Shown here in pieces: positions 2,312-54,913 of a stretch of DNA of 64,000 bases (positions within the stretch are counted from its first letter, which is position 1; each line of letters starts with the position of its first letter). Both the position numbers and the translations under genes were made by a program. The notes under the pieces were generated by a model. It was not told where the DNA came from. It did no database searches and saw only the letters and a program-made list of their open reading frames with translations. This DNA is from an uncultured Chlamydiae bacterium (GTDB taxonomy: Bacteria > Chlamydiota > Chlamydiia > Chlamydiales > JAJFMA01): NCBI GenBank assembly GCA_963713615.1, contig CAVQMM010000001.1, positions 2,752,001-2,816,000 of the forward strand, given 5' to 3'.

Positions 2312-3754
2312 CTATGCTGCTAATGGAAGAACGGCTTTTTCGTTTGGCACAACCGTCAGTTCTGACATGCTACGACCAAGAACCTTGGCAGCACCAAGCC
2401 AACTAGCAATGGCCAGGATAATGATTACAGCGAGAAGTGGTACTCCGCCACCAATGGTTGCGAAGATCATCACTAGACCTTGGTGTACCACTGAGGCCAT
2501 CGATCTGCCCAAACGAGACCCCAGACCATCCACAGCGGCTTTACCCTGAGCCTTGATGTGAGATTCAAGAGGAATAAAGGCCAAGTCTTTACTGACGTCT
2601 AACAGAGAGTGCTTGCTGGCCCTGCCAGCACTGAATTGTACCGCTCCAACCATCACCGCAACAGTCATCAGAGTCGTGGTTTCAAATGGCAAGTATTCTC
2701 GCATTAATAAAAGCCCAAAGAAAACAACGCTACATCCCAGTAGGAAGATGGGGCTTATCATGGCTGTCTTGGTCCATCCAAAACGATCTAATAACGTGGG
2801 GGCAACCATTGCTAACAGGACTGTTAGTATTCCACATACCGTCGAAGTATGGCCTAAAAAGGTATTGTATTGATTGAAATCCGCATAGACCTCTTTGACT
2901 TCCGCCTTCCACACGAGTTCAAATAAGTTCATTACCAAATTGTAAGCAATAACCATCACAGCGAGACATAGAAGATGGCGATTCTGAAGGAGTTGATGCA
3001 GCTGTTGTAGGGCTCCCACGTTCATCTGATGCTTCGACGGTGATTTTCCAGCTTTGCCTAGTCCTACAACATAGGAACTCAATAGCCAGCGAAAGAGAAA
3101 AATTGTAGTCAAACATCCCGCGATGATAATTGTAGAAAGCCCATACACAGAGAAGTTGGGCATGACATTACCAACGAGGACAGAGACTTGCCCACCCACA
3201 GCAGCCCCTAAAGCACCTCCAATACGTACCCATGAATAGGATTTCTGCGCTTCGTCTAGAGGTGTAATTTCGTTTGCCAAGCTCCAAAAGATGACTGAAG
3301 TGACCATGCATGCCCATAGCTCACCGACGACAAAAAACAGAGAAAGTGTCCAATTGCGCATCATTGCTACAAAGCCCTTTAAACCCGTTGGAAGCAAGGA
3401 ACTGGCTGCCTCAGCGTAGCTCCGCGGTTCAATGATGTCGCGATAAGGGTAAAGAACGCAGGCGAAGAGAATAAAGAAGGCTAAGAAGCCTATGAGCAGC
3501 TTATAAATAACAGTGACTAGTCCTTGACGCTTTAGGGATGTACTAAACCACAGCGTTACTACACAGGTCAAAGGAAGCAACAACCACAGTTGAATAAATG
3601 GGATGACTTCAGCACCAGATCCTTCTGCTGTTATCACCAAAGCGTCTTTCATGGCGTGCAGTATGTTGTGAACGACACAAATGATGAAGAATATGATACT
3701 CATTAGTACCACTCTCTGACCGGATTTTTCTGCTGCTCCTTCAAAATTGGGCAC
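2312..3754 (-). CDS. TLC family nucleotide transporter (NTT), divergent paralog
   Basis: MKDALVIT..GAEVIPFI, ELW, WSLANEIT, LVWK, AFIPL...GKAAVDG motifs; multi-pass membrane protein. Confidence 0.85.
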   Translation of the reverse strand: MPNFEGAAEKSGQRVVLMSIIFFIICVVHNILHAMKDALVITAEGSGAEVIPFIQLWLLLPLTCVVTLWFSTSLKRQGLVTVIYKLLIGFLAFFILFACVLYPYRDIIEPRSYAEAASSLLPTGLKGFVAMMRNWTLSLFFVVGELWACMVTSVIFWSLANEITPLDEAQKSYSWVRIGGALGAAVGGQVSVLVGNVMPNFSVYGLSTIIIAGCLTTIFLFRWLLSSYVVGLGKAGKSPSKHQMNVGALQQLHQLLQNRHLLCLAVMVIAYNLVMNLFELVWKAEVKEVYADFNQYNTFLGHTSTVCGILTVLLAMVAPTLLDRFGWTKTAMISPIFLLGCSVVFFGLLLMREYLPFETTTLMTVAVMVGAVQFSAGRASKHSLLDVSKDLAFIPLESHIKAQGKAAVDGLGSRLGRSMASVVHQGLVMIFATIGGGVPLLAVIIILAIASWLGAAKVLGRSMSELTVVPNEKAVLPLAA

Positions 3755-3782
3755 TTATTTGTCTTCCTCCCTCTACACTATA

Positions 3783-5255
3783 TTATGCGGCTGCTCTGAC
3801 AGCGTCAGAAATGTTCTTCTCATTATCTCCATCTGCCTGATCACTAAACTTTCCAAATTGAATCCCTAGGTACTTAACAGCACCAATCCACACCACCAGG
3901 GATGTCAGCAGAACTAGCCCAACCATCGGAATGCTATTTGAGATCGTGGTAAACATAATAATGAAGACCTGATGGAATCCTGCGGAAGCACACCGTCCAA
4001 GGCGAGAAAGACCACCATCTATCGCTGCTTTGCTTTTGAGCTTGATAGCTGGATCAACAGGAATAAAGGCCATGTCCTTAGTACCATCAAGGACCGAATG
4101 CTTGGTTACGCGTGCTACAATTTCCATTAGGCCCCCTAGGAGCACACCAATTGTCAGTAGAATACTGGCGTGCGTCGGGAAGAAGTCAGTAAGGTATAGA
4201 GCGGTAAGAAATGCAAATCCGGTAACAAGCAACGAAATTGGGCAGATCATGGCTGTCTTTGTCCATCCCAAACGTGCCAATATGCGGGGAAACATCGACG
4301 CTACAACAATGGAGCCAATGCCAATCACAATGGTGATGTATCCCAAGTAGCGATTATAACTGCTGAAATCGGAGAAAACGTGTTTTAGTTGATCCTTCCA
4401 CACCAATTCTCCTACATTCAAAACAAGATTATATCCCAGAACAATGATACCAATGCTCAGGAGATAAGGAGATCTAAAAATGGATGCCAAAGCTTCGATG
4501 AGCCCGTCTTTCTTCGATCTATCGCGCGCATTAGCTTCATGACGAATAACATCGTACTCGGAGCCTACAAGGATCTGGGTTGTCATCCGGTGAAAAAGCA
4601 CCAACATGCCCAGTCCCATTGCTAAAACGACTGCCATCAATCCATAAACGGACATTTCCACCGAAAGATCACCCGCAGCCAAGGGCACAAGACCTGCTAG
4701 AGTAGCTCCTAGGTTACCCCCCATCATGTACACCCCATAGGAACGTCTGGCCGATGAGAGGCTGGAAATCGTGTTAGCAAAGCCCCAAAATAAAACCGCT
4801 GTAACCGTTGAGGCCCACAGTTCACCAACCGTATAAAAAGCACTAAAGGTCCAATTGCGAATCATACCCACCATGCCGTGCAAACCAGAGGGCATCCAGA
4901 TCAAGGTATCGTTCGCAAATGCCTGTGGATGTAAAACATCGCGTAGTGGGTAAAGAACCAAGGCAAAAAGAGCGAAAAAACCGAGAAAACTGCCAACGAC
5001 CACATAGAAAAGTGTAATTTGATTGTAACGACTCGCTAGACGAGTAAAGGCCCATGTAACAAACAATGTTGCTGGAAGCATCATCCAAATTTGAATGAAG
5101 GGTATCACCTCGGTAGCCGATCCCTCAGCCGTGATCACTAAGGCATCTTTCATGTTGCGGATGATGGAATGGATAAAGCAGATGAGGAAAAATATGAGAG
5201 TCATGAACAAAGTAATCCTACAACCAAGGCCTAACCTGTTGCGGATCCGAATCAT
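3783..5255 (-). CDS. TLC family nucleotide transporter (NTT), divergent paralog
   Basis: RNMKDALVIT..EVIPFI, ELW, FWGFAN, KDMAFIP..KSKAAIDG motifs. Confidence 0.85.
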   Translation of the reverse strand: MIRIRNRLGLGCRITLFMTLIFFLICFIHSIIRNMKDALVITAEGSATEVIPFIQIWMMLPATLFVTWAFTRLASRYNQITLFYVVVGSFLGFFALFALVLYPLRDVLHPQAFANDTLIWMPSGLHGMVGMIRNWTFSAFYTVGELWASTVTAVLFWGFANTISSLSSARRSYGVYMMGGNLGATLAGLVPLAAGDLSVEMSVYGLMAVVLAMGLGMLVLFHRMTTQILVGSEYDVIRHEANARDRSKKDGLIEALASIFRSPYLLSIGIIVLGYNLVLNVGELVWKDQLKHVFSDFSSYNRYLGYITIVIGIGSIVVASMFPRILARLGWTKTAMICPISLLVTGFAFLTALYLTDFFPTHASILLTIGVLLGGLMEIVARVTKHSVLDGTKDMAFIPVDPAIKLKSKAAIDGGLSRLGRCASAGFHQVFIIMFTTISNSIPMVGLVLLTSLVVWIGAVKYLGIQFGKFSDQADGDNEKNISDAVRAAA

Positions 5256-5404
5256 ACACCCTCGTACGTTCTATTTAATTAACAAGCCTAACAATTCTCC
5301 ACCAATTTTAATACAATATACAATTAAAGTAAAGACAAACGAATTAAATCAAGAAGCGCATTGTAAATAACCAAACAACGTATAGACTACTAGTGACTAT
5401 TGCA

Positions 5405-6916
5405 TTAAGCTGCTTGTGCAAGGTTTTTGCAGGCTGAACTATTCTTAACAGACTGTTGGGTAAGATCCGCAAACTGATATCCCAGAGAACACGCAGAGAC
5501 AACCCACACAAAAATACAACCCGTTATAATGACGAAGATCATAGGCATACTTTGACCAAGGCTGCTAAAGACTATAATACATAGTTGTTGAACGATGGCA
5601 GAGCCCGAAATAGCTATACGAGATAACGCCCCATCAATGACAGCCTTGCTTTTGAGTTTCAACTCGGTCTCCAGGGGAATAAAAGCCAAATCCTTGGTTC
5701 CATCAAATACCGAATACTTCGTCATGCGCCCCAGAACTTCCATTAAACCACCGGTAAGAACAACAATACCTAGTATGGTGACCGACTCAAAAGGCAAGTA
5801 GCTGCCAAAGCAGAGTATACCGAAGAAACAGACACTTGCCACACCTGTCGACGCTGGACATAACATAGCGGTTGCAGTCCATCCCAAAGTATTTAGGATG
5901 CGGGGTAGAAAACCAGCCAAAATCATGGCTCCTACCCCAATGGCTGTGGTGGTATAGCCCAAATAGTTGTTGTAAGCATTAAAGTCCCCACATACTCGTT
6001 TGAGCTGATCTTTCCAAACTACCCCGCCAATACTATTCACAAAGTTAAAGGCAAAAACAATGACCGCTAGGCACAGAAGGTAACGATTGCAGATGAGCAT
6101 ACGAAGAGATACTAAAAGAGAAATTTTCTCAGGTTTTTCACTTGGATCTATCACCTGGTGAATACAATCATACTCCGATCCTATGAGAACATAACGGGTC
6201 AGCCATTGAAACACCGCTAACGAGACTAATCCGGAGACTATAATCACGACTAACAGGATATAGATCGATAGTTCGGGGGAAATTCCACCTACAAGAGGAG
6301 GGATCAGGCCCGCCATCGTAGCCCCCAGATTGCCACCCATCGCATAAAGACCATAGGATCGTTTAGCTTGTTGCAAGTTACTAATTGCATTGGCAAAGCT
6401 CCAAAAGAGAACGGATGTTACCATACTTCCCCACAACTCACTCATTGTAAAAAAAGCACTGAATGACCAATTACGTAACATGCCTACCAGGCCGCGCAAC
6501 CCATTCGGCAATTGAGCTGATGCACCCAAAGCAAACTCATGCAGATGTATGAAATCGCGTAGAGGATATAAAACGCACGTGAATACGACAAAGAAAGCTA
6601 AGAATCCACCCAACACCAACTGAAACAACGTCCTTTGACTATAGCGAGATGCCAAGTAGGTAAAGACCCAAGTAGCCAATAATGTTGCCGGTAGCAGCAT
6701 CCAAAGTTGAATAAAAGGAATGACCTCAACATCAGCCCCCTCAGCTGTTATAACTAGGGAGTCCTTCATAATTCGCAAAAGTGAACGAACAATGCAAAGC
6801 AAGAAGCAGATTAGAGTCATCGCAAGGGTGATTTGACATTCGAGACCTAACCTCTGACGAATCCAGTTCAATAGGTTCCCGAAATTGGTTCCAATAAATC
6901 TAGCCACAACCACCAA
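5405..6916 (-). CDS. TLC family nucleotide transporter (NTT), divergent paralog
   Basis: MKDSLVIT..EVIPFI, SELWGS, FWSFAN, KYSVFDGTKDLAFIPL motifs. Confidence 0.85.
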   Translation of the reverse strand: MVVVARFIGTNFGNLLNWIRQRLGLECQITLAMTLICFLLCIVRSLLRIMKDSLVITAEGADVEVIPFIQLWMLLPATLLATWVFTYLASRYSQRTLFQLVLGGFLAFFVVFTCVLYPLRDFIHLHEFALGASAQLPNGLRGLVGMLRNWSFSAFFTMSELWGSMVTSVLFWSFANAISNLQQAKRSYGLYAMGGNLGATMAGLIPPLVGGISPELSIYILLVVIIVSGLVSLAVFQWLTRYVLIGSEYDCIHQVIDPSEKPEKISLLVSLRMLICNRYLLCLAVIVFAFNFVNSIGGVVWKDQLKRVCGDFNAYNNYLGYTTTAIGVGAMILAGFLPRILNTLGWTATAMLCPASTGVASVCFFGILCFGSYLPFESVTILGIVVLTGGLMEVLGRMTKYSVFDGTKDLAFIPLETELKLKSKAVIDGALSRIAISGSAIVQQLCIIVFSSLGQSMPMIFVIITGCIFVWVVSACSLGYQFADLTQQSVKNSSACKNLAQAA

Positions 6917-7018
6917 AGGCTAATTAATTTAGTTTTATAAGTTACAATTTTATATAATTAAAATCAATGCATTTTAACACTCATAAGTTAAATTAAATAA
7001 TAAATACTTTCAAAACTA

Positions 7019-7248
7019 GGCTCTTGGAAGGAATTGGGGTGCTTTGGAATCACAATCGTCAATCGTGGCGAAGCGCTTTGGAGCCCCAACCGACTGCGTC
7101 GCCAATATCCGAAAGTAACGCTAAAAAAGCCCCACGAGCTTCTATGCGCTCGCGCTGCGCGCCGAGTGACGATTGTGACTCCAAAGCGTAGCACATCTAT
7201 TCGATGGTTTGTGGCAGCAAAAAGCTCCCCCAATTCTTCCCAAGAACC
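7019..7248. mobile_element. composite MITE-like repeat (about 230 bp) with TIRs and an inner inverted repeat
   Basis: ggctcttggaaggaattgggg / ccccaattcttcccaagaacc ends; inner ctttggaatcacaatcgtca / tgacgattgtgactccaaag; core shared with 2265-2311; lone TIR copy at 24727. Confidence 0.7.
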
Positions 7249-7275
7249 TTATAAAATCCTGTTTTTCATCCGCTG

Positions 7276-8862
7276 CTAGGTAACAGCGGGAGCTTGAGTT
7301 TGCGACTCGGGTTGCACTGGATGTTCTAGGGCAAGAGCAGCAGCCACAGCCTCTGCTTCATGTTCCTCTCCGATCTGTTCACCCTTCTTCGCTACGAGAG
7401 CATGAAGCTGACGTCCCAAGGACTTGGTAGCAATGATCCAGGCCACAATAACAATTAATAGAATCGCGGCAACATAGGGGGCGCTGGCGCTGAGCGTGGT
7501 GAAGATCAATAATAGCCCTTGATGCAGGAGAGACCCTCCAGACTTGCCAAAACGTGAACCAACACCATCAATAGCCGCTTTACCTTTCAACTTATATTCG
7601 TGAGGCAAGGGAATAAAGGCCATCTCTTTGGTACCATCAAAAACGGAATACTTACAGCCTTTGCTTAAGGAATTCTGAGCTCCCCCAATAAAAACGATAA
7701 GGGCCAAGGGAGTAGCACCAAAAATCCAGGCGCCTTCGATCGAGATAAGATCTTTAAAAAACAGGAGGGTAAAAAAGCCGATACCTGTAATCAAAATAGT
7801 CATCGGAGTGATCAGAGCAGTAAAGGTCCAACCCATCTTTTTGATCAAGAAAGGCAGGAAAAAGCAAAGAAACAAAGAAATCAAGCCTACACCCGTGGTA
7901 ACATTACCCAGGTAATTATTATAATCAGCGAAGTTTGGATAGAGTTGCTTAAGCTGATCCTTCCAAACAACCTCAACGAGATTAATCACCAGGTTATATC
8001 CCACCACCAAAGCGGCAATACAGAGTAGGTATTTGCTTTGGCTGAGCTGTGACATGCTCTCACGCATCGATAGTTTCTGCCGCTGCTCACCTTCGAGAAG
8101 ACGACGACGACCATGAAGCGCATCATAGTTGCGATTATTGAGAACATAGATGTTCATCCAACGAAAAATAACCATCGTAGCAAAGCCACTGACCAGAATA
8201 AGAGTCATCAGAATGACTACAGAATCTCCAATTCCAGCATCTGCAACCATTGAAGGAACCTGACCAGCCAGAACAGCTGCAAGATTACCGCCAGCACTAA
8301 GAACTGCGTAAAAGCGTCTTGCATCACCGATGCGGGTCACCTCATTAGCAAACCCCCAGAATAGCACCGTTAGGACGATACATCCCCAAAGTTCCGATAC
8401 CACATATAAGCTGGTAAAAGTCCAATTTCGCAGCATGGAAACGACCCATCGAAAGCCACTCGGAAGGATGTTCTCTAAAGCTTCGGCCGTTTCATGGGGA
8501 TGAAGGGCATCCTGATTGGGATATAGCACGAAGACAAAGAGAGCAAAGAAGACCAAAAAGCCACTGATAATCATGTAAAAAACGTTTTCTTGACTATAAC
8601 GGCTGGCAAGCTTGGTATAGAGCAAGGTGAGTAGTACGGCCATAGGAAGCATTGCCCAGACCTTAATGAAGGGAATAACCTCTGCGCCTGAAGACTTTGC
8701 AGTGACTACCAGAGCATCCTTCATGTTGCGTAGGACGCTATAGTTAAAACAAATGCAGAGCAGCATCAGGAACATCGGCAATACCATGCGATTTTCCTCC
8801 CTGCGAATGGGCCAGAAAATTCCTCTTAAAGTTCCGAACTGAGGCTGCTGAGTTTGTTCCAT
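7276..8862 (-). CDS. TLC family nucleotide transporter, chlamydial NTT2-like
   Basis: FWPI, FNYSVLRNMKD, GAEVIPFIKVW, ELWG, LVEVVWK and GKSGG all canonical; resembles Protochlamydia NTT2 from memory. Confidence 0.9.
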   Translation of the reverse strand: MEQTQQPQFGTLRGIFWPIRREENRMVLPMFLMLLCICFNYSVLRNMKDALVVTAKSSGAEVIPFIKVWAMLPMAVLLTLLYTKLASRYSQENVFYMIISGFLVFFALFVFVLYPNQDALHPHETAEALENILPSGFRWVVSMLRNWTFTSLYVVSELWGCIVLTVLFWGFANEVTRIGDARRFYAVLSAGGNLAAVLAGQVPSMVADAGIGDSVVILMTLILVSGFATMVIFRWMNIYVLNNRNYDALHGRRRLLEGEQRQKLSMRESMSQLSQSKYLLCIAALVVGYNLVINLVEVVWKDQLKQLYPNFADYNNYLGNVTTGVGLISLFLCFFLPFLIKKMGWTFTALITPMTILITGIGFFTLLFFKDLISIEGAWIFGATPLALIVFIGGAQNSLSKGCKYSVFDGTKEMAFIPLPHEYKLKGKAAIDGVGSRFGKSGGSLLHQGLLLIFTTLSASAPYVAAILLIVIVAWIIATKSLGRQLHALVAKKGEQIGEEHEAEAVAAALALEHPVQPESQTQAPAVT

Positions 8863-9006
8863 AAATCCTCGAGAAAAACATTCTACACCAAGTATACCGC
8901 GTCAAACACATTTGACGAAGAAACAAGAAAAAAGCCCTTGTCGAATCGCCAGCCTATATAACCGCGCGTGGTATAGCTGGGGCCAACAACAGTAAATATT
9001 GTGTCA

Positions 9007-10593
9007 TCACACTACAGCCTCTTGCCCCTCTATTGCATCTTTACTGCTAGGGGCCAGAGCCGGTCTAGCTGGCGCTGCAGCAGCAACGCCTTTTTCAGTA
9101 AGTTCATTAAAACGTTTGCCCAGGGCATACACAGCAATAATCCACAAAACAATAACACCCAAAAGCCAAGCAGCAACATAAGGGGCACTGGCAACAATCG
9201 TAGAGCAGCAAAGCAGAAGCCCTTGATGAATCACCGAACCACCCGATTTACCCAAGCGAGAACATACACCATCAATAGCTGCCTTTCCCTTGAGCTTGCA
9301 TTCACTGCTGAGAGGAATAAAAGCGAGCTCCTTGGTTGCATCGAATACCGTGTATTTTGCACCTCGGCTAACACAATTCTGCATCGACCCTAAAAACACC
9401 ACCAATGCCGGTGTGCTAATTCCAGTCAACATGGGTAGCACAGCACACATTCCCTCTTTACAAAAGAAGAAATAGAAGAAAAGGATGCTTGTGAATAGCA
9501 ATGCTACAGGAGTGATCAAGGCCGTGAAGGTCCAGCCAAAACGTCGAATAAAATTCCCGGTCCCTACCAACGCAGTTAAAGTTGCTAGGACACCGATGAT
9601 CGCCATGACCCCGTTCATGTAGAAAGTGTAATCGTGGGCACTGGGATAGAGATCGCGCACCTGATGCTTCCAGACGACCTCGACAAGATTGATCACGATA
9701 TTGTAGCCCACGACAATGATAGCAAGGCACAAGAGATAAGGCGAACGCACCAAATAGGCAAAACTGTCACGCATGGACAGCTTACCGCGAATCCCTTGAT
9801 CCTCAATAGCCTTGTCAGCGTCGTAATACAAAGGATCGGTCAAGACACTGCAATGCATCCAACGAAATAGGCCCGCCACAACGATACCACTCATCAAGAT
9901 AAGACCAATCTGCAAAAACAACCAGCGATCCCCTTCAGGGATGAACGGCAATGGAATCTGCGAACCGTAACTAATGAGTGCCATAGAAGTCAGACCGGCC
10001 ACGGTACCAGATAGGTTAGCTCCGAGGCCAAAGAGACCATAAAAGCGTTTAGCTTCCTCAATACGTGTAATCTGGTTAGCAAAGCCCCAAAAGAGCGTAA
10101 ATACAATGATAGCGCTCCACAACTCCGCCATGACATAGAAGCTGGTAAAGGTCCAATAGCGACACATGGAGATGAACCCACCCAATCCCAAAGGCAGCCG
10201 CTCCTGCAACCAGTCGGCGAGAACATGAGCATGAAAGTGCTCACGGAAGGGATATAGAATGGTGACAAACAACAAGAAAAAGCCTAGGAAGAGTGCCATC
10301 ATGATGTAAAAGACGATCTCGCGTGACCAACGATTGGCTAAGCGAGTGTAGACGAAGGTCAAGACGACAGCCATGGGAAACATGACCCATACCTTGATGA
10401 AGGGAATCACTTCCGCTCCCGACGACTTCGCCGTAACGATGAGGGAATCCTTCATGGTACGTAGAACATTATAATTGAAAGATATGAAGAAAAAGATAAG
10501 AAGCATTGGTACTAGCTTCTTAAGCTCAAAGCGATGGATTGGCCATAAGAACCCTCTCCATCTTCCAAATTCTGGGTGAACAGGCTGTGACAT
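9007..10593 (-). CDS. TLC family nucleotide transporter, chlamydial NTT3-like
   Basis: LWPIHRFELKKLVPM, FIKVW, ELW, LVEVVWK and GKSGG; resembles Protochlamydia NTT3 from memory; lies downstream of pgk. Confidence 0.9.
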   Translation of the reverse strand: MSQPVHPEFGRWRGFLWPIHRFELKKLVPMLLIFFFISFNYNVLRTMKDSLIVTAKSSGAEVIPFIKVWVMFPMAVVLTFVYTRLANRWSREIVFYIMMALFLGFFLLFVTILYPFREHFHAHVLADWLQERLPLGLGGFISMCRYWTFTSFYVMAELWSAIIVFTLFWGFANQITRIEEAKRFYGLFGLGANLSGTVAGLTSMALISYGSQIPLPFIPEGDRWLFLQIGLILMSGIVVAGLFRWMHCSVLTDPLYYDADKAIEDQGIRGKLSMRDSFAYLVRSPYLLCLAIIVVGYNIVINLVEVVWKHQVRDLYPSAHDYTFYMNGVMAIIGVLATLTALVGTGNFIRRFGWTFTALITPVALLFTSILFFYFFFCKEGMCAVLPMLTGISTPALVVFLGSMQNCVSRGAKYTVFDATKELAFIPLSSECKLKGKAAIDGVCSRLGKSGGSVIHQGLLLCCSTIVASAPYVAAWLLGVIVLWIIAVYALGKRFNELTEKGVAAAAPARPALAPSSKDAIEGQEAVV

Positions 10594-10832: not shown

Positions 10833-12062
10833 CTATCTACCGAGAGAAACCTTCTTAGGGGCATCTGAAAGGGCATCAATACCTGGTAATGTTCCATACT
10901 CTATGTATTCCAGTGTAGCTCCCCCACCGGTCGACAGATGTGAGAACTTGCTGCCTAATCCTAACCCTTGCACTGCAGCTATCGAATCCCCACCACCCAC
11001 TATTGTAGTGGCCTTTAACTCAGCTAACACTTGCGCTATGGCCTCGGTGCCACGCGCAAACTGAGGCAGTTCAAAGACTCCCATAGGCCCATTCCACAAT
11101 ACACTGTGCGCAGCCTTAAGCTCGCGCGCATAGAGGTCGATGGTCTGTGGTCCAATATCTACCCCCATCAAGCCTTCTGGAATCCCCTCTTGCAGGCTTA
11201 CCACACGATTAGCAGAGGCTCCTTCATCCAGTGTGGCTACCACTACAACATCTAAAGGCAGCCAGATCTTAACCCCGGCTTTTTGAGCTTCGGCTAAAAC
11301 TACCTTAGCTTTGGGTATGAGATCTTCTTCGAAGAGCGAGCTTCCGATAGATTTGCCTTGCGCCTTAAAAAACGTAAAAGCCATGGCTCCGCCCAAGAAA
11401 ATGGCGTCAGCCTTTTTAATAAGACTTTTTAGAACCCCAAGCTTCGTGGAAATCTTCTTGCCCCCCACGATAGCAAAGAAAGGGCGCTGGGGAGTTTCCA
11501 TATGCTCGCCGAGGTATTGCATCTCTTTCTGCAACAAAAAGCCCGCAGCGGCGCGACCAGGAAAATACCGCGTCACCCCGACGATGGAGCTATGAGCTCG
11601 ATGAGCTGTTCCAAAGGCATCGTCGACGTAAAAATCACCTAACCGCGCCAGCTTTTCAGCAAAGGAAGGATCCTTTTCCGGTTCCTCCTCGGCAGCGTGA
11701 AAGCGTAGATTTTCTAATAAAAGCACCTCACCAGGCTTCAGGCCTTTGGCCAGATTCTCCACCTCTGGACCTATACAGTCTGATGCTAGTAAAACAGGTT
11801 TTTTAAGAAGGTCAGAGAGTCTTTTTCCACAAGGAACCAGCGAAAACTCCTTCTGACGCTTCCCTTTAGGACGTCCCAGATGACTCATAAGAATGACCGA
11901 GCCTCCTTGATCCAATACATAACGTATTGATGGCAAGGAAGCCTCAATGCGAGTGTCATCGGTGATATTTGCGTTATTATCCAGTGGAACGTTAAAGTCG
12001 ACTCGCATGAGAACCTTCTTCCCCGTGAGAGGAAGATCTTGCAGGGAGAGCTTGTTCACCAT
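10833..12062 (-). CDS. pgk: phosphoglycerate kinase
   Basis: RVDFNVP, SHLGRPKG, LENLRFH, DAFGTAHRAH, WNGPMGVFE, GGGDS, STGGGA; start moved to MVNKLSL (12062). Confidence 0.97.
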   Translation of the reverse strand: MVNKLSLQDLPLTGKKVLMRVDFNVPLDNNANITDDTRIEASLPSIRYVLDQGGSVILMSHLGRPKGKRQKEFSLVPCGKRLSDLLKKPVLLASDCIGPEVENLAKGLKPGEVLLLENLRFHAAEEEPEKDPSFAEKLARLGDFYVDDAFGTAHRAHSSIVGVTRYFPGRAAAGFLLQKEMQYLGEHMETPQRPFFAIVGGKKISTKLGVLKSLIKKADAIFLGGAMAFTFFKAQGKSIGSSLFEEDLIPKAKVVLAEAQKAGVKIWLPLDVVVVATLDEGASANRVVSLQEGIPEGLMGVDIGPQTIDLYARELKAAHSVLWNGPMGVFELPQFARGTEAIAQVLAELKATTIVGGGDSIAAVQGLGLGSKFSHLSTGGGATLEYIEYGTLPGIDALSDAPKKVSLGR

Positions 12063-12111
12063 AAAAACCTCATCAAAAAGGCCTTGGAGACGATGCCTCG
12101 AAGAATATCGA

Positions 12112-12140
12112 ATCATAGGATTGACTGTTTGCAAAGTCAA
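12112..12140 (-). promoter_or_regulatory. sigma70-type promoter for pgk
   Basis: Minus strand TTGACT-17 nt-TATGAT, about 50 nt upstream of the pgk ATG. Confidence 0.5.
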
Positions 12141-12151
12141 GGAAAAGCGCA

Positions 12152-12763
12152 ATGAATAAATCAGCTTCGACCTTACGCAGAGACGAACTATCCTCAAATC
12201 CGTTCGACCAGCTGTCTATTTGGCTGCAGGAGGCCCTGGATGCATATAGTGCCGAGCCCACGGCGATGGTGTTAGCGACCGCCACGAAAACCGGTATGCC
12301 TTCAACGCGTACGGTGTTGCTGAAGCGATTGGATACGGGCTTGGTTTTTTTCACCCATTACACCAGTCGCAAAAGCCGTGAATTGGAGGCAAATCCGCAC
12401 GCCTCCGTCGTATTTTTATGGAAGGAACTAGACCGGCAGGTCATCGTCGAAGGCGTAGCCACAAAAGTATCGGAAGAAGAGTCCGATACCTATTTTGCTT
12501 TACGAGCGCGTGGCAGTCAGATTGGATGCTGGACATCAAAACAAGGCAGCGTAGTGGAGTCACGACAGGCTCTCGATGACGCCTATGATAAGACAGAAAA
12601 GCGCTTTGAAGGACAAGACATACCCCGACCTCCTCACTGGGGAGGATGGCGTCTGACGCCTACGCGTTTTGAGTTTTGGCAGGGACGTCAGTACCGCTTA
12701 CATGATCGCTTTCAATATTTGCCTGAAGGTGAAGGCTGGTTGATCGAGCGACTATCGCCATAA
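12152..12763 (+). CDS. pdxH: pyridoxamine 5'-phosphate oxidase
   Basis: RTVLLK, FFTHYTSRKS, RQVIVEG, PRPPHWGG, EFWQGRQYRLHDR. Confidence 0.95.
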   Translation: MNKSASTLRRDELSSNPFDQLSIWLQEALDAYSAEPTAMVLATATKTGMPSTRTVLLKRLDTGLVFFTHYTSRKSRELEANPHASVVFLWKELDRQVIVEGVATKVSEEESDTYFALRARGSQIGCWTSKQGSVVESRQALDDAYDKTEKRFEGQDIPRPPHWGGWRLTPTRFEFWQGRQYRLHDRFQYLPEGEGWLIERLSP

Positions 12764-17023: not shown

Positions 17024-18402
17024 TTATCCATTGGCGACAAGCTTATAACCCATCTCCCTTGCTTGTTTTTGTATACGGTTGAGGTTTTTTTGCCGCTGCT
17101 CTTTTTCGAACTGCTCTGCTCCAAGTTCGTGATACTCTTTTTGATATTTCAGCATATGATAAATGATTCTGGCTAGTTTGTGAGCCGTTGCTGTAATGGC
17201 TTTTGGTGCTCCAAGTTTAGCCCTCATACGACGGTAATAGGCTCCTAGATAACTATCCGAAAAGGTAAGCGAATAAGCTGCCATACGTAATGCTTCCTTA
17301 ACCCGATTTTTACTTGCCTTTGTCCTTCCACTGAGTACCTTTCCGCCAGATACCTTATTACCAGGACAAATCGCCATCCACGAGCTAAAGTGTTTTTTGG
17401 TTTGCCATTTACTCATGTCAGTACCTATCTCTGACAATACCTTGGCAACAGTGTTTTCATTGAGACCTGGGACTTGACAAAGATCAACTCCCGCCCAAGA
17501 ATGCAGCTGTTTTTGCATATCAAAGGAAAAAGGGCTTCGATTGTATGATCTTTTTATGCTCTTTTTTAATTTTGGCTTTTTTTCATCAGGCTTTATTCTA
17601 TCCACCTTTTCAAAACTATTAATTACTTGCTTAATCTTTTCCTCACATCTGATTGCTTGCTCATGAAAGAACTTATAAGCTTCCCAGGCCTGTCCTAAAG
17701 CAAATAAATGTTCCTCGCGCCAGTTTCCTTCCAGAGCTTTAGCAATCTTTTCTTCACTTGATTTGCACCTTTCATCCCTTAGACGTGCCAACTGTGCAGG
17801 GTTGCGTTCTCCACCAAGAATTGCTTCGATTATAAGAGACCCTGTAAGACCAGAAATATCGCTCACAACCTGAGCGAGTTTAATATTGAGTTGTTGCAGC
17901 GCCTTGTGGGCATAGTTGAGTTGGTCCGCCGCTCGTTCAAAAAGAGCCTTTCGGTGACGCATATATGCCCTCAGCCTGACAACGTGATCCGCTGGCCTGA
18001 AAGATCCATTCAAAAGTCCGAAGGCATGCAAACGTTGAATCCACTTGGAGTCACAGACATCTGTTTTTCGGCCTGTTACATTTTTCATGTGATGCGCATT
18101 GACAAGATGAACACTAAAGCCTTCTTGTTCGAGCACCTCGAAGACGGGAATCCAATAGACGCCTGTAGACTCCATGGCAACAGTGTCTACACCGCATTTT
18201 TTTAACCAATGCGCCATCTGATGTAAGTCAGCGGTGAAGGCGACAAATTCGCGAACCTGCTCTGGGTCTCGACCGGCAGGAACACAGACAAACACACCTT
18301 CTGCTCCTACATCAATACCGCAAGCATTTGGATTGATGATTCTTAATCCTTCAGTATCGTTTTCTTTTGCTTTGGGGGCTTTTTTTGTGTAGACTTAGGC
18401 AT
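17024..18402 (-). CDS. IS110-family recombinase/transposase; N-terminus needs a -1 frameshift
   Basis: CGIDV, MESTGVYW, KTDVCDS (DEDD RuvC-like domain), C-terminal CPGNKVSGG; ATG at 18402 is out of frame with the main ORF across CAA AAA AAG. Confidence 0.9.
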
Positions 18403-30720: not shown

Positions 30721-32169
30721 TTGAGTAAAATAATAAGTTTTATAGCTCTATCGCTTCTCCTCGTTTTTAGCAATAATCTCTGTGCATTTTCCTTCCCTTC
30801 ATTTATCCCTCATGAATGGAGACATCAGGAAAGAATGAAAAAAATTGACCAGTGCAACGGATCTCATCAATGTCTCGTCGACATGTATAAGGTTGTTGCT
30901 CTAAGCGGAGATGTCGTAGCCTTGCGTGAATTAGTCGCTAAGGGTTTGGATCTCAACCAACGTTTTTTTGCAGGCTACAGTGAATGGAGCGAGACCCCAA
31001 GCGTAGCATATCCGCCTCTTTATTACTATCTCGATGGATATGGGTACTTTGGTAAAGATCACGCTCAAGAAGCAGCTAAGGCATTTTCTCCAAAGTTTCT
31101 TGAAGAGCTAATTATTCTTGGAGCTGATGTTCAGGAACGTCCGACATTGTCTCATATATCTTATATGACCAAGGACATTCCAAATGATTCGCCTCTTATG
31201 ATAGCAATTAAATCTGGCAATATTGAGGCAATTAATATACTTCTCGCGCATGGTGGTCTTTTTGAAAAAAACGGTTCTGAAGCAGATAATGACGGTCGTA
31301 CTGCCCTTATGAAGACTCTTGAGGATTTACGCATCAACGAAAACAAATTCTGGAATAAAGGCAAATTTAATGAAAAACTTGTTGAACAAATAGTTGAACT
31401 TCTTGTTAATGCAGGGGCCAATGTGAATCATGTGAGTATATCTGGAGAGACTCCCCTGATGATGGCAGCAAGACAGCACTTAATTGGGGTGATAAACTTC
31501 TTATTTGAAAATGGTGCCATACAAAGCATCAACCAAAACTCCTTGCAGGGAACAGCTCTTATTCAGGCAATTCAAACCGTGAACCGACCGATCAGCGCTA
31601 TTAGAACTTTACCTGTAGTCCAATTGTTAATTGAGAAAGGAGCTGATATTAATATTCCCAATCCATATTCAAATCAAACACCCCTAGATTATGCGAGGCA
31701 TTTCCATGATTACCCAGAGGATCAGCGCTTGATCAACTTTTTAACGGAACTTGGAGCAAAGAGTTCAAAAGACAAAGACTTTCACTACGAACACGAAAAA
31801 GGTTACTGGGAATATTTCAAAGACGACAACAAAGACAATTATTCTGACGACAACAGCTATTCTGACAATAATAGACAGTCAAGCAACAATAACCCATCAA
31901 ACAATGAAAAACCAGACATGACACAGTGTCCAGTTTTCGAAACGGCAGGATTGACTTCGGCACAAAAACTGTGGTTTATTGACTGCATCATAAATCACAA
32001 TAACCCTTCTGAACGTTTCCCAGGATCGTCGGAACCTGGGCAATGGATTACGACCAAAGAGTTCTATCGTCTCGCACGTCTTTTTCATCCCGATAAGGGA
32101 GGGAAGGGTTGTGAATCTCTTATGAAGTGTCTCAACGAAGCAAGGGATCTATCGAAAAAAGGATCCTAG
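30721..32169 (+). CDS. signal-peptide ankyrin-repeat protein with C-terminal J-domain-like module
   Basis: Ankyrin units (DSPLMIAI, GRTALM, GETPLMMAA, GTALIQAI, QTPLDYA); D/N-rich linker; YRLARLFHPDKGG...KCLNEARDL. Confidence 0.8.
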   Translation: MSKIISFIALSLLLVFSNNLCAFSFPSFIPHEWRHQERMKKIDQCNGSHQCLVDMYKVVALSGDVVALRELVAKGLDLNQRFFAGYSEWSETPSVAYPPLYYYLDGYGYFGKDHAQEAAKAFSPKFLEELIILGADVQERPTLSHISYMTKDIPNDSPLMIAIKSGNIEAINILLAHGGLFEKNGSEADNDGRTALMKTLEDLRINENKFWNKGKFNEKLVEQIVELLVNAGANVNHVSISGETPLMMAARQHLIGVINFLFENGAIQSINQNSLQGTALIQAIQTVNRPISAIRTLPVVQLLIEKGADINIPNPYSNQTPLDYARHFHDYPEDQRLINFLTELGAKSSKDKDFHYEHEKGYWEYFKDDNKDNYSDDNSYSDNNRQSSNNNPSNNEKPDMTQCPVFETAGLTSAQKLWFIDCIINHNNPSERFPGSSEPGQWITTKEFYRLARLFHPDKGGKGCESLMKCLNEARDLSKKGS

Positions 32170-33011: not shown

Positions 33012-33715
33012 TCTGGCTACCCCCTGAAAGTGTTTCAGGATTGGGCTCATAGCGAAAATAGACCGCTCGGTAAGTTTTGGGCAACCACTCAGGATAGTCT
33101 AGCCTGATTAACGTCGGTACAATGGCTAGTCCCTTGGAAGGAGACCACGATGCCATCTCGATCGTCAATTCGGCGATTGTTTTATCTACAAGCGATTGTT
33201 CATTGCGCTGAATAAGGCCATCGAAATAAAAGTATACAGTAAGCGTACCATTTGCTACCTCAAAGGCTACCCTGCGAAGGTTTGGGGGTACATGGCCTTG
33301 CAACGCAAAACCGATGAGCATGTCAAGGTCTGCTTCCAAATATTTCCCTTTGGGATCTAGTTCTAAACACCTTTTAAGGTATTCACGGTCCAGAGTCTTG
33401 GAATAGGCTATGGGTTCATGCCTAAAGAAGACACAACACCCCAACTGCGGAGGCCTCTTGGGGAAAGTCTACGCGAACAGTGACAGAACTACAAATATTC
33501 CACCTTCCCCGGTCAAAACCGCAATCCGCGAGGATTTCAGTGAGGATGTCGGCTGCAAGTTCCTTACCAAGCTCATCGATAGGTCCGTGATAGTAATATC
33601 CCACGTCGAAGGAGTTTTCAATACAATCAACATAGACAGCACGTAATGCAGGCCAAACATGTCCTAAGAGCGCTGTTTGAGCGGATAGACTGAGGTATCG
33701 TACAGATAAGGCCAT
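32992..33715 (-). pseudogene. putative two-domain immunity protein split by a +1 frameshift (ORFs 33422-33715 and 32992-33444)
   Basis: Removing one C from TTT CCCC AAG (33460-33463) gives VRVDFPKRPPQLGCCVFFRHE, matching the paralog IRVDVPYSPPHLGACVYMRYE; start overlaps the toxin stop (TAATG). Confidence 0.65.
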
Positions 33716-35244
33716 TATTTTCTGAACTCAAAAAGAATAGGCACGATGTGTACTCCCTTTTTTGAATAGTGTATCTCGCCGATAGTTGTTGCGGTTTTTG
33801 CTTTTGTCTCGCGGTCCACAGCATAGCCAATCATCTCTCCAAAGTCTACAGCCTCTCGATAACCTGGCTCACCAAATTTATTTTTGTTTCTTGTTGGCAC
33901 TCCTTTGCCCCCATACTTGTCTACTAGCCCTTGTGCATCTGGATGTGTTAAGATGCTCCGCTTAGCGTCATAGTTATGAGCGCTTGGGACATGCTTATTT
34001 TGTTTGTCCCACTCAATTTTGAAGCGGCTAATTGTCTGCTCTCGAGATGCAAGATGCTTGGCTGATTCGGCGATGATTTTTTCGGCATTAGCTTCAGAGA
34101 CCCTCATGGTGTCAAGGAGAACTTCACGGTTAGCATTGCGCAGCTTGCTTAGATAGGTTCCCCCCTTGATGCTAACCTCTGCCGCTAGTAAATCAATGCC
34201 ATATTTGCCCAGGGCATATCCAAAAAGCTCAGCACGCTCGCTATCTGAAAGAGTTTCGTAGTGGTCAGCCAGCATGCGTAGTTCTACGATACAATCATCC
34301 AGCATGGCTTCGTCTACAGACTGCATGAACAGAACGGTTTGCACCATAGCATCGTGGCTACAGTTGATAAAATTATTCAGTGAGGCGCCAGGATCTTGGG
34401 CACAAGTCCACAATGCAGTGCCAATACCTCTTAGGGTATTCCACAGGCAAGGAATGATCTCCTTAACTGAATCAACGGCACCTGAAGTCAAACTACTAAG
34501 AAATGTATCGGCAAATTCGGTCGAGGTTTTGAGCTTTACTGTAGCTAGTTGTTTTCGAATCCCTGAGCTGTCATAGTCGCTCAAAGCCGCTTCATAATCT
34601 CCTGATTCAAAATGGGCTACTGCCCTTTGGAAATAGGCCTGCTTATTTTGGGGATTTTTTTGAATGAGATCGGAAAGAACGTCAATAGCCACGTCATACT
34701 TCAAAACCTGAATGAGAGCCTCTCCTTGTGCACATTGCATGTCCGGTGTGAAAGCCTTAGGTGATCCACCATGACCTATAAAGGACTCAAGGTTAGCGAC
34801 GCATCCTTCATAGTTTCCCTTATCAAAGCAGATGCGTCCTCTTTCATAGTAAGCGCTGAGATGACCATGTTTAGCCGCACAATCGGTGTAAATTTCAGAA
34901 AAAATTTGGGAGGTCTCCTGCCATCCACTGAGGAGGATATTGACACCTGGGGGATCGCATCTGTCCAAGCATTCTCTAAAGACATTGGATAGATCGGTAT
35001 AGGTGTTTTTATAGAGCACCTGCTTTTCTGCTAACTCCCAGACTGAGCTGACATAAGTGGTTCTAAAGAGACGTCCACCAGCGCAGTGTGCATCATAAAT
35101 ACTACAGGCTGCACAACTCTGAGCTTTGCGGATGTCGTTGCCATGCTGGGTACAAAAACGAGTCGTAGCAGCATAACCCAGTCCAAAACAACACGTTGCA
35201 AAAAAGAATGCTAATAGAACAATCCGTTTCATCTTGCTTCTCAT
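33715..35244 (-). CDS. polymorphic toxin: signal peptide + Cys-rich region + TPR + helical linker + Ntox50-like RNase toxin
   Basis: GAGG RBS before MRSKMKRIVLLAFFFATCC; TPRs (AYYERG, AYFQRAVAHFESGDYEAALSDY); C-terminal KQNKH...E.VDFG..IG...T..GEIHYSKKGVHIVP. Confidence 0.8.
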   Translation of the reverse strand: MRSKMKRIVLLAFFFATCCFGLGYAATTRFCTQHGNDIRKAQSCAACSIYDAHCAGGRLFRTTYVSSVWELAEKQVLYKNTYTDLSNVFRECLDRCDPPGVNILLSGWQETSQIFSEIYTDCAAKHGHLSAYYERGRICFDKGNYEGCVANLESFIGHGGSPKAFTPDMQCAQGEALIQVLKYDVAIDVLSDLIQKNPQNKQAYFQRAVAHFESGDYEAALSDYDSSGIRKQLATVKLKTSTEFADTFLSSLTSGAVDSVKEIIPCLWNTLRGIGTALWTCAQDPGASLNNFINCSHDAMVQTVLFMQSVDEAMLDDCIVELRMLADHYETLSDSERAELFGYALGKYGIDLLAAEVSIKGGTYLSKLRNANREVLLDTMRVSEANAEKIIAESAKHLASREQTISRFKIEWDKQNKHVPSAHNYDAKRSILTHPDAQGLVDKYGGKGVPTRNKNKFGEPGYREAVDFGEMIGYAVDRETKAKTATTIGEIHYSKKGVHIVPILFEFRK

Positions 35245-35470
35245 GTTATTCCTCTCAGATCGCAATCTGGTTCTAACATTTGCCATAGACTGTAAACTCT
35301 TTTCTGAGATTCGTGCAAAGATAAAATTGGATTTTATTCGTAAGAGACTTCCCCTTCCCCGTTTATGAGCTTCTTTCTCACACGATCCCACATAATCTCA
35401 CATAGGCCTGATGTGAGAAAAAGGTTTTGTACGGCAAGCACTACATTCTCTCCCCTCTCCTCCTTCTCAT

Positions 35471-53830: not shown

Positions 53831-54913
53831 TTATTGACTTAGAAGCGTTACAAAGACGTCATTGATGTAATATTTTTCGCGACCGACCTTAACGCCTCTT
53901 AATACTCCAATTTGTTCTAGCTTTTGAAGATAGCGTGATGCCGTTTGTCTTTGAGCGATACCTGCGTTTTCCAAAAAAATAATTTTGCAATAGGGATGCT
54001 GGAAAATAACCTCCAAGAGATCCTTAGAGTAAATCTCTGGGGCGGTGTCCTTTACCTTCTTTATGGTATCACGAAACAGATCATGAATTTTTAATAGCCG
54101 AACTCTAGTCTGATTAGCGGTATCATGAATAGCATCCAAAAAATAGACTATCCAGTCTTCCCATTTAGCCTGTTCCGTAATACTTCTGAGCCCGGAATAG
54201 TATTTTGATCGTTGCTCCATAAAGTAACGAGAGAGGTAGAGAACCGGGGTGTCTAGGAGTTCCTTTTCAACCAAGTATAGAATGTTAAGGATACGTCCAG
54301 TTCGGCCATTCCCGTCGTGAAAAGGATGTATCGCCTCAAATTGATAATGAATGACTGCCAACTTGATCAAAGGGTCTACCGAATCTCGAGCATAAATATA
54401 GTGTTCCAGATTAGCTAACTTGTCACGAATGACGGCTTCTCCCTCAGGAGGTGTATAGATGATTTCACCTGAAGGCGTAGCCAGTTTGGTTCCCGAAGTC
54501 CTTCGAACAACCGTTTCACTACCTATAAGTATGGTGCAAAGTTCCTCAAATAGTGTCGTAGTCAGTAAACGTTTCTTACTCTTGAGCGCAAAATATCCGT
54601 GCCAGAGAGCATCGTGGTAGTGCAAGACTTCTTTCGTGTCCAAAGAAACCTGGTGGTCACGAGATGTGAAAGCTCTATACAGTTCATCGTTTGTGGTAAC
54701 GATATTTTCGATTTCCGATGATAGCTTAGCTTCCTGCAACCCAATTGTCTGGATCAGAACAGACTGATTTGGAATCAATGGACCGGTTCCTTTTAACTCG
54801 GCCAGTGCTCTATGGGCAGCAATAGCCTTCTTTAGAACAATCGCAGTTTCAAGCTCTTGATCTGGAGGCAGAAGAGGTAGATCATTGTAACTTTTTTCAC
54901 GATGATAAGACAC
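53831..54913 (-). CDS. class II Fic protein (Fic_N + Fic + C-terminal wHTH)
   Basis: HPFHDGNGRTGR active-site motif; SSEIEN inhibitory motif; C-terminal RQTASRYLQKL HTH. Confidence 0.92.
   Translation of the reverse strand: MSYHREKSYNDLPLLPPDQELETAIVLKKAIAAHRALAELKGTGPLIPNQSVLIQTIGLQEAKLSSEIENIVTTNDELYRAFTSRDHQVSLDTKEVLHYHDALWHGYFALKSKKRLLTTTLFEELCTILIGSETVVRRTSGTKLATPSGEIIYTPPEGEAVIRDKLANLEHYIYARDSVDPLIKLAVIHYQFEAIHPFHDGNGRTGRILNILYLVEKELLDTPVLYLSRYFMEQRSKYYSGLRSITEQAKWEDWIVYFLDAIHDTANQTRVRLLKIHDLFRDTIKKVKDTAPEIYSKDLLEVIFQHPYCKIIFLENAGIAQRQTASRYLQKLEQIGVLRGVKVGREKYYINDVFVTLLSQ

Follow-up and report, generated by a model that had tools for sequence, protein, structure and literature searches.

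Five tandem NTT genes downstream of pgk

The DNA analysed here is a window of 64,000 nucleotides from the genome of an uncultured Chlamydiae bacterium (G000; 3.97 Mb, 99% complete), and its subject is an array of five TLC/NTT nucleotide transporter genes, three of which have diverged at conserved residues. The five genes lie in tandem on the minus strand downstream of pgk and are free of stops. A sequence-only reading had described two canonical paralogs followed by three divergent but intact ones, and the open reading frames (ORFs), the matches to Pfam family PF03219 and the motifs agreed with it. The conserved upstream neighbour pgk (10833..12197, minus strand; Pfam PGK, E 3e-150; synteny) is given as its longest ORF, and the true start is probably further in. 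The canonical pair, placed by tree and motifs, consists of an NTT3-like carrier (P0005, 9007..10593, minus strand, 528 aa), in which K155, E245, E385 and K527 are intact, and an NTT2-like carrier (P0004, 7276..8862, minus strand, 528 aa), which represents the parent lineage of the divergent genes. By eye, their motifs match PamNTT3 and PamNTT2, respectively, in Fig. S1 of PMC4256464. The divergent genes follow as P0003 (5405..6916, 503 aa, subtype A2), P0002 (3783..5255, 490 aa, subtype A1) and P0001 (2312..3754, 480 aa, subtype B), all on the minus strand and assigned by tree and residue pattern. Pairwise identity among the five proteins was 34-51%, and the divergent proteins shared 38-42% with P0004. 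All five matched PF03219 at E 1e-115 or better, the divergent three over their full length with 387-400 bits against a gathering score of 21. The TIGR00769 cut-off of 387.2 bits was passed only by the canonical pair (556 and 536 bits); the divergent proteins scored 351, 374 and 365 bits. G000 has 12 TLC matches in total, which also include an NTT1-like gene, three more distant TLC genes, a fourth FIQLW gene on contig C1 (C1:1701k) and a C-terminal fragment of the divergent clade (C1:2644k).

Descent and distribution of the divergent genes

In a careful tree of 46 rows, 17 full-length members formed one clade (support 100/99) inside the NTT2 group (99/98). A quick tree of 70 rows agreed on NTT2 descent; the position of the clade within the NTT2 group was not settled by the 46-row tree. 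Of its rows, 7 fell into branch A and 9 into branch B, with a copy from G004 at the base, and each of its three subtypes was represented by one window gene, with P0003 and its orthologue P0008 as sisters at 100/98 (A2). Grouping the three window genes as one clade was rejected (approximately unbiased (AU) test, p 5.7e-33, at a cost of 340 log-likelihood units). The sequence-only reading had suggested a phylogeny and had expected a local duplication. The tree bears out duplication of the adjacent NTT2-like gene; that it was local is contradicted by the AU test, by the presence of the clade in five genomes, and by the A-B pair being syntenic in G001 and G003.

A 14-member profile was run over 400 genomes of the order, and the best three candidates were scored per genome. 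The clade was found in five genomes (G000 to G004), all from the same chlamydial family, and no member turned up in any other family. Members in these genomes scored 649-745 bits and anything else at most 585, although a profile matches its own members by construction and could miss a far-diverged one. In G001, two clade genes form part of this array; in G003 these two stand apart as a pair, with one further dispersed copy, and G004 had at least one, at a contig end. In G002, one dispersed copy was present and those of the array have been lost from the locus; no member was found in G005, and no TLC match in G006 (61% complete). A further six full-length members and a partial one came from two protein searches, and the closest relatives with a name were proteins and loci of Chlamydiales and Parachlamydiaceae. 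G000, G001 and G003 have all kept a linked pair in which a B gene lies within 50 nt downstream of an A gene and an AT-rich leader precedes the two. The order pgk-ntt3-ntt2, known from Protochlamydia, was conserved, with pgk adjacent to the pair in 11 of 11 covering loci (inverted in one, with one gene inserted in another), Protochlamydia itself lying outside the sample. Judged by their phylogeny, the three divergent genes belong to an old subfamily, derived from NTT2, of a single chlamydial family. Four other genomes of this family share both the subfamily and its A/B split, and only the P0002/P0003 split may be younger, P0003 already having an orthologue with the same losses (P0008).

A metagenome scan gave one locus among 86 pattern matches (L150), with K155Q and K527 kept. 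Its NTT (L150:1339-2784) is of chlamydial type, sits on a long branch whose tie to the clade is weak (47/70), and lies 2 kb from a gene that by ORF reading is thymidine-kinase-like.

Residue changes in the divergent subfamily

Residues are given in AtNTT1 numbering, counted along the alignment against PDB 9j3j (offset 84), by which K155 is the Lys of FIKVW, E245 the Glu of ELW, E385 the Glu of LVEV and K527 the Lys of GKSGG. On reading of the motifs, the changes reported earlier were all present. FIKVW was replaced by FIQLW, FIQIW and FIQLW in the three divergent genes, and GKSGG by AISGS (P0003), GRCAS (P0002) and GRSMA (P0001). LVEVVWK became IGGVVWK in P0003, with loss of the Glu, and VGELVWK (P0002) or LFELVWK (P0001), with the Glu kept. 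The N-terminal WPI motif was missing from all three, and a WP motif was kept in the fourth clade member elsewhere in the genome. The four key positions therefore read Q/E/E/R in P0001 and P0002, where K527 to Arg is a conservative change, and Q/E/G/I in P0003.

Gln at K155 occurred in 0 of 229 non-clade NTT rows, 222 of which read K/E/E/K. Among the 17 full-length clade members (the partial P0137 left out), K155Q and TKE>TKD were present in 17/17 and a first-helix Tyr>His in 14/17, while K527 was Arg in 14, with one Lys, one Ile and one Cys. Half of the canonical pattern was retained, 73 of the 147 columns conserved in canonical NTTs remaining at least 80% conserved in the clade; E245, the Lys and Asp of MKD, the K-Y/H-S Lys and the DxTK motif were kept. 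The subtypes differed in their further changes. P0003 combined K155Q, E385G and K527I with a gained first-helix Arg and Asn to Glu in the QN motif, and P0008 read Q/G/C at the same three sites. P0002 combined K155Q and K527R with the first-helix Tyr to His and the QN Asn to Glu, keeping the first-helix Arg and the GGN Asn. Both of the latter were lost in P0001, which had K155Q and K527R and had gained an Arg four residues before the GGN site. An AlphaFold model of P0003 (pLDDT 93.9) had a template-modelling (TM) score of 0.86 to AtNTT1 9j3l; its best PDB matches were five NTT1 entries (E 1e-19 to 1e-24), with TM 0.82-0.86 to ligand-bound entries. We are confident from this model that P0003, the one divergent protein modelled, has the major facilitator-type NTT fold.

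A second clade of divergent NTTs, in which K155 is replaced by Glu and K527 by Arg, was seen in G000 (C1:2459888-2461240, L008; C1:3130624-3131916, L009). It also occurs in G001-G004, and with it these two lysines have been rewired twice, independently, in the family.

Selection on the subfamily

We estimated omega at 0.064 for branch A with the basal copy (5 rows) and 0.037 for branch B (6 rows), compared with 0.028 for NTT2, 0.042 for NTT3 and 0.043 for PGK; these values are only rough because synonymous sites were saturated (pS 0.72-0.88). Second positions differed at only 19-33% while synonymous sites were saturated, and stops were found in 0 of 11 genome-derived clade copies. Neutral evolution, which dN/dS had been proposed to detect, was not seen: with dS saturated, omega was about 0.04-0.06, and the subfamily is under purifying selection. 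Within the same genome pair, dN was 0.37-0.38 for the clade versus 0.13-0.15 for NTT2 and NTT3, a change about 2.5 to 3 times faster.

Leaders and expression

Two of the divergent genes had been noted to have AT-rich upstream regions of their own, and base composition bore this out. The very AT-rich leader of P0003 (6917..7017, minus strand), likely the promoter of the divergent unit, had 15.8% GC, and only 0.012% of equal C1 windows were as low. The leader of P0002 (5256..5404, minus strand) had 30.9% GC (1.2% of equal windows as low). The leader of the divergent unit was also AT-rich in G001 (19% GC) and G003 (24%), compared with 33-47% in six NTT2/NTT3 leaders. P0001 follows P0002 after a gap of 28 nt, with a GGAGG ribosome site before it, and is likely to be co-transcribed with P0002. 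A sigma70-like site matching at 9 of 12 positions was found in the P0002 leader (5333-5305); such sites were no commoner here than in shuffles, and promoter and terminator scans stayed at shuffle level (12 vs 12.3 and 10 vs 11.3). RNA contigs from one run (share 0.10) included a 198-nt piece on P0001, for which DNA carry-over is possible. The same run, with low and patchy contig cover, left P0002, P0003 and the C1:1701k copy uncovered; contigs covered 10/30 bins on the window stretch, partly dispersed repeats, and 11/30 on a second 20-kb stretch in the island described below.

Genomic context and metabolism

The downstream neighbours of the array (a hypothetical protein, a putative cyclase, NamZ and PutA) give no clear functional hint. 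Dispersed B copies were found next to glycan genes. The G000 copy at C1:1701k lies between an FkbM methyltransferase and a sulfotransferase on the same strand, that of G003 (C22) beside a GT92 gene, and that of G002 (C76) beside an asparagine-synthase/GT9 cluster. The copy in G000 belongs to an island of about 26 kb (C1:1696117-1722769; L148, L149) with about 20 enzymes in tandem families: all three sulfotransferase-like proteins that phmmer found, all six FkbM proteins, three GH130-like proteins and two DUF1796 proteins. Five further related proteins of no known family are, at a guess, glycosyltransferase-like. Both PF00685 and all six PF05050 matches of G000 lay within 13 kb of the dispersed B copy. 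A hydrophobic N-terminus was predicted for 15/19 island proteins versus 692/2154 long ORFs. The island enzymes are probably exported and glycan-modifying, to go by these features, and the island is worth a look as a candidate glycan- or host-modifying system. Elsewhere in G000 (C1:2643847-2644053, L012), a subtype B C-terminal fragment is surrounded by remnants of DUF1796 and methyltransferase genes, in what looks like a degraded copy of the island.

APS kinase was found in none of five genomes, and PAPS (3'-phosphoadenosine 5'-phosphosulfate) is therefore not made by that route. Sulfotransferases occurred in 2/5 genomes, G001 and G002 having B copies without one, and PF13469 was found in 0/7 genomes. 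FkbM was absent from G003, which has three clade copies, and no NTT was present within the 18-kb loci read around its two sulfotransferases. Among cofactor genes, metK, nadE and coaE were present in 5/5 genomes and ribF in 4/5; auxotrophy for NAD, S-adenosylmethionine (SAM) or FAD was rejected on the presence of nadE, metK and ribF. The genomes of the family have coaD (6/7 over the cut-off) and coaE without coaBC. Order-wide, coaD was matched in 62/250 genomes and the coaBC cut-off was passed in only 3/250, and import of a CoA precursor as a specific role was rejected because this pattern does not single out the clade. UDP-glucose auxotrophy was considered as well: three of the four PF00483 matches of G000 were classified (GlgC-like, RfbF and one unclassified) and included no GalU, and the fourth was taken as GlgC by its length, but a PF01704 UDP-sugar pyrophosphorylase was present in 7/7 genomes. 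The clade occurs with pyrB (G000, G002, G004) and without it (G001, G003), and with purM (G004) and without it, and hence shows no relation to the bulk need for nucleotides. None of five genomes yielded a thymidine kinase or a member of the uridine kinase family PF00485; an Upp-like phosphoribosyltransferase was present on reading of the sequence.

G000 also carries a pyrimidine operon from pyrB to pyrF (C1:797000-802200, L154), and purH heads its his operon, with no purM (C1:2500878-2509300, L155); purH in this position is no sign of purine synthesis. Both arrangements are unusual for chlamydiae.

Relation to characterised NTTs

Chlamydial NTT2 carries out counter-exchange of four ribonucleoside triphosphates. 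The PamNTT2/chlamydial NTT2 group (PF03219) is the direct parent, in which the subfamily nests and whose ntt2 gene it adjoins. It differs from this group in K155Q, K527R/I/C, TKE>TKD, FNY>xxH and QN>xE/xD/QF, in a shorter N-terminus, in evolving about three times faster and in having its own AT-rich leader. It shares E245 and, in the predicted model, the fold with the ATP/ADP+Pi translocators AtNTT1 and Chlamydia pneumoniae NTT1 (PDB 9j3j-9j3o), whereas the lysines needed there for ADP and ATP/Pi binding are changed. PamNTT4, an NAD+ carrier, also lacks K155 and K527 and is the sole characterised NTT without both lysines in the alignment of PMC4256464, where Lys stands at K527 in 25 of 26 readable rows of Fig. 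S1, PamNTT4 being the exception. Its substrate is likewise less anionic, but PamNTT4 comes from a remote branch of the NTTs and has few motifs in common with the clade; the resemblance is convergent, and G000 encodes NadE. Orthology to it found no support, the clade nesting in NTT2 and the motifs differing by eye, in a tree built without PamNTT4.

NTT paralogs with substituted key residues have been reported in TM6 (PMC4776705), where neofunctionalisation was proposed, and in microsporidia (PMC4256464; PMC10654386), and uncharacterised NTT diversity is large (PMC5381601). Like the present genes, the TM6/Dependentiae and microsporidian paralogs (ThNTT1/3, EhNTT3/4) are lineage-specific duplicates with K155, E245 or E385 changed. 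The microsporidian ones keep K527, and ThNTT1/3 carry ATP/GTP, whereas here both lysines change, fixed, in three subtypes. Literature searches on this subfamily, or on nucleotide-sugar or PAPS transport by NTTs, turned up no description of the subfamily, in a collection without most subscription journals. Substituted-residue NTT paralogs are thus already known, and this chlamydial subfamily is, as far as its sequences tell, a new variant with a predicted substrate only.

Candidate substrates of the divergent carriers

We tentatively propose, with a probability of about 0.45, that the divergent trio exchange nucleotide compounds that have no gamma-phosphate, with nucleotide sugars as the first candidates and ADP-containing cofactors as the second. 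Exchange would take place across the inner membrane. Loss of K155 and replacement of K527 by Arg, Ile or Cys would weaken the triphosphate site, the remaining Lys, Arg, Asp and Glu could still hold a nucleoside mono- or diphosphate, and the new His, Gln, Asp and Arg would contact the group replacing the gamma-phosphate. The compound may differ between subtypes, the counter-exchange mode would come down from NTT2, and enzymes that build or modify glycans may be supplied by the carriers or have their products recycled by them. The proposal draws on the new residues, which are fixed and not decayed, on the low omega, on the lack of both lysines in the NAD+ carrier PamNTT4, on the occurrence of the clade with and without pyrB and purM, and on the glycan genes beside dispersed B copies. 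Mutants at the K527 site are consistent with it. PamNTT1 K446Q/E lost Pi (inorganic phosphate) transport and favoured ADP (PMC2606016). AtNTT1 K527R and K527E kept ADP binding and lost most ATP binding, with ATP binding by K527R above 1 mM and ADP binding at about 33 uM (PMC3306366). Which carriers import UDP-glucose, FAD and dephospho-CoA into intracellular bacteria has been described as an open question (PMC5615194), and NTT sequence does not predict substrate (PMC4256464). The sequence-only reading had expected less anionic substrates, and positive charge was indeed lost on balance at conserved polar columns: over 27 of them, net charge was 4-5 in 204/226 canonical rows and 1-3 in 17/17 clade rows, a drop of about two. 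The charge and residue changes fit a substrate without a gamma-phosphate and name none.

Several points weigh against this proposal. The 27 columns were hand-picked after the alignments had been inspected, without a check against coordinates; in a scan whose columns were fixed on canonical NTT2, subtype B was seen to gain an Arg outside the 27, which brings its drop in charge nearer to one than to two. AtNTT1 K155E and K155R lost ADP binding (PMC3306366), and a simple diphosphate site is therefore not favoured. PamNTT1 K446R kept ATP preference and Pi transport at a much lower Vmax (PMC2606016), and Arg is the common state at K527 in the clade. ThNTT1 and ThNTT3, without K155 and E385 but with K527, still carry ATP/GTP (PMC4256464). 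The four glycan neighbourhoods go back to roughly two separate moves, and no such neighbours flank the window array. Finally, no genomic gap singles out a substrate.

A bolder proposal, which we consider unlikely, is that this lineage remodelled its NTP exchanger into donor/product antiporters like those of the Golgi, which would feed exported glycosyl-, methyl- and sulfotransferases. The A-B pair would then be the first carriers of group-transfer donors (nucleotide sugars, PAPS or SAM) in the NTT family. The Golgi nucleotide-sugar, PAPS and SAM antiporters have other folds and belong to unrelated protein families, and the analogy is functional only.

It is somewhat unlikely, though the main alternative, that the divergent NTTs still carry nucleoside tri- or diphosphates with altered base specificity, affinity or mode (e.g. 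uptake of dNTPs or symport with protons), perhaps in a different developmental stage governed by the AT-rich promoter. ThNTT1/3 carry ATP/GTP without K155, K527R is conservative and in PamNTT1 preserved ATP preference, and E245, the MKD Lys/Asp, the K-Y/H-S Lys and DxTK are kept. Duplication changed both substrate range and mode in microsporidia (PMC5923384), and G000, without purM, must import purines. G000, however, already has NTT1-, NTT2- and NTT3-like carriers and three more distant TLC genes, both lysines changed together were found among the characterised rows read only in the NAD+ carrier, and neither member of A2 has a positive residue at K527 or a Glu at E385.

That subtype B specifically exchanges PAPS/PAP or SAM/SAH for sulfotransferases and methyltransferases is quite improbable. 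The dispersed B copy of G000 is flanked by both enzyme types, with the PF00685 and PF05050 matches close by, most island proteins have a hydrophobic N-terminus, APS kinase is missing, and subtype B has also lost the first-helix Arg. Against it stand the B copies of G001 and G002 in genomes lacking a sulfotransferase, which only 2/5 genomes have, the situation in G003 (no FkbM despite three clade copies, and sulfotransferases without an NTT nearby) and the presence of metK; exported sulfotransferases could moreover use host PAPS without an inner-membrane carrier.

Import of nucleosides or nucleoside monophosphates for salvage would suit the lower positive charge, the Upp-like phosphoribosyltransferase and the thymidine-kinase-like gene near L150, but with thymidine kinase and PF00485 in 0/5 genomes and several basic core residues kept, there is only a slim chance of it. 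Redundant copies drifting under relaxed selection, or unexpressed, which the faster amino-acid change, the copies lost from the G002 array, their absence from G005 and the fragment in G000 might suggest, are largely refuted by the selection results (saturated dS against 19-33% at second positions, omega far below 1), the invariant new residues and the conserved pair and leader.

The subfamily constitutes a natural set of selection-tested triple variants of the phosphate site beside their own canonical parent. Since the NTT family expresses well in E. coli and structures are now solved, the role of K155 and K527 and the substrate limits of NTTs are directly testable with this set. If NTPs are still carried, the subfamily would be a modest addition to known NTT diversification.

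Dispersed repeats and other features of the window

The stretch between P0004 and the leader of P0003 (7018..7275) is a composite of genome-wide dispersed repeats, not cassette-specific, with at most about 80 genome matches per position and the inverted repeats I1, I2 and I4. A 48-nt dispersed repeat after P0001 (2264..2311; about 50 copies genome-wide) is inverted relative to 7083-7130. A mobile cassette bounded by these two copies was considered and rejected, the repeat unit having about 50-80 copies genome-wide. Together, 7018-7275 and 2264-2311 represent a nested family of short repeats, dispersed in about 20-80 copies per position; one insertion separates ntt2 from the AT-rich leader, and the other directly follows the P0001 stop. 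Another family is present at 1942-2112 as a dispersed palindrome of 165 nt, of which the genome holds about 260 near-identical copies, resembling a miniature inverted-repeat transposable element or a repetitive extragenic palindrome, and the ORFs at 1777-2249 are spurious because of it.

A low-GC ORF of 438 aa (598-1914) had no Pfam or NCBIfam match; G001 has no counterpart there, and G003 has an unrelated ORF across the cyclase gene. A 558-aa protein (33715-35391) combines tetratricopeptide repeats with a C-terminal Ntox50 domain, and the small ORFs downstream of it had no Pfam match. The window also encodes an IS110 transposase (17024-18295), an ankyrin-repeat protein (30721-32169) and a SoFic-like Fic protein (53831-54913).

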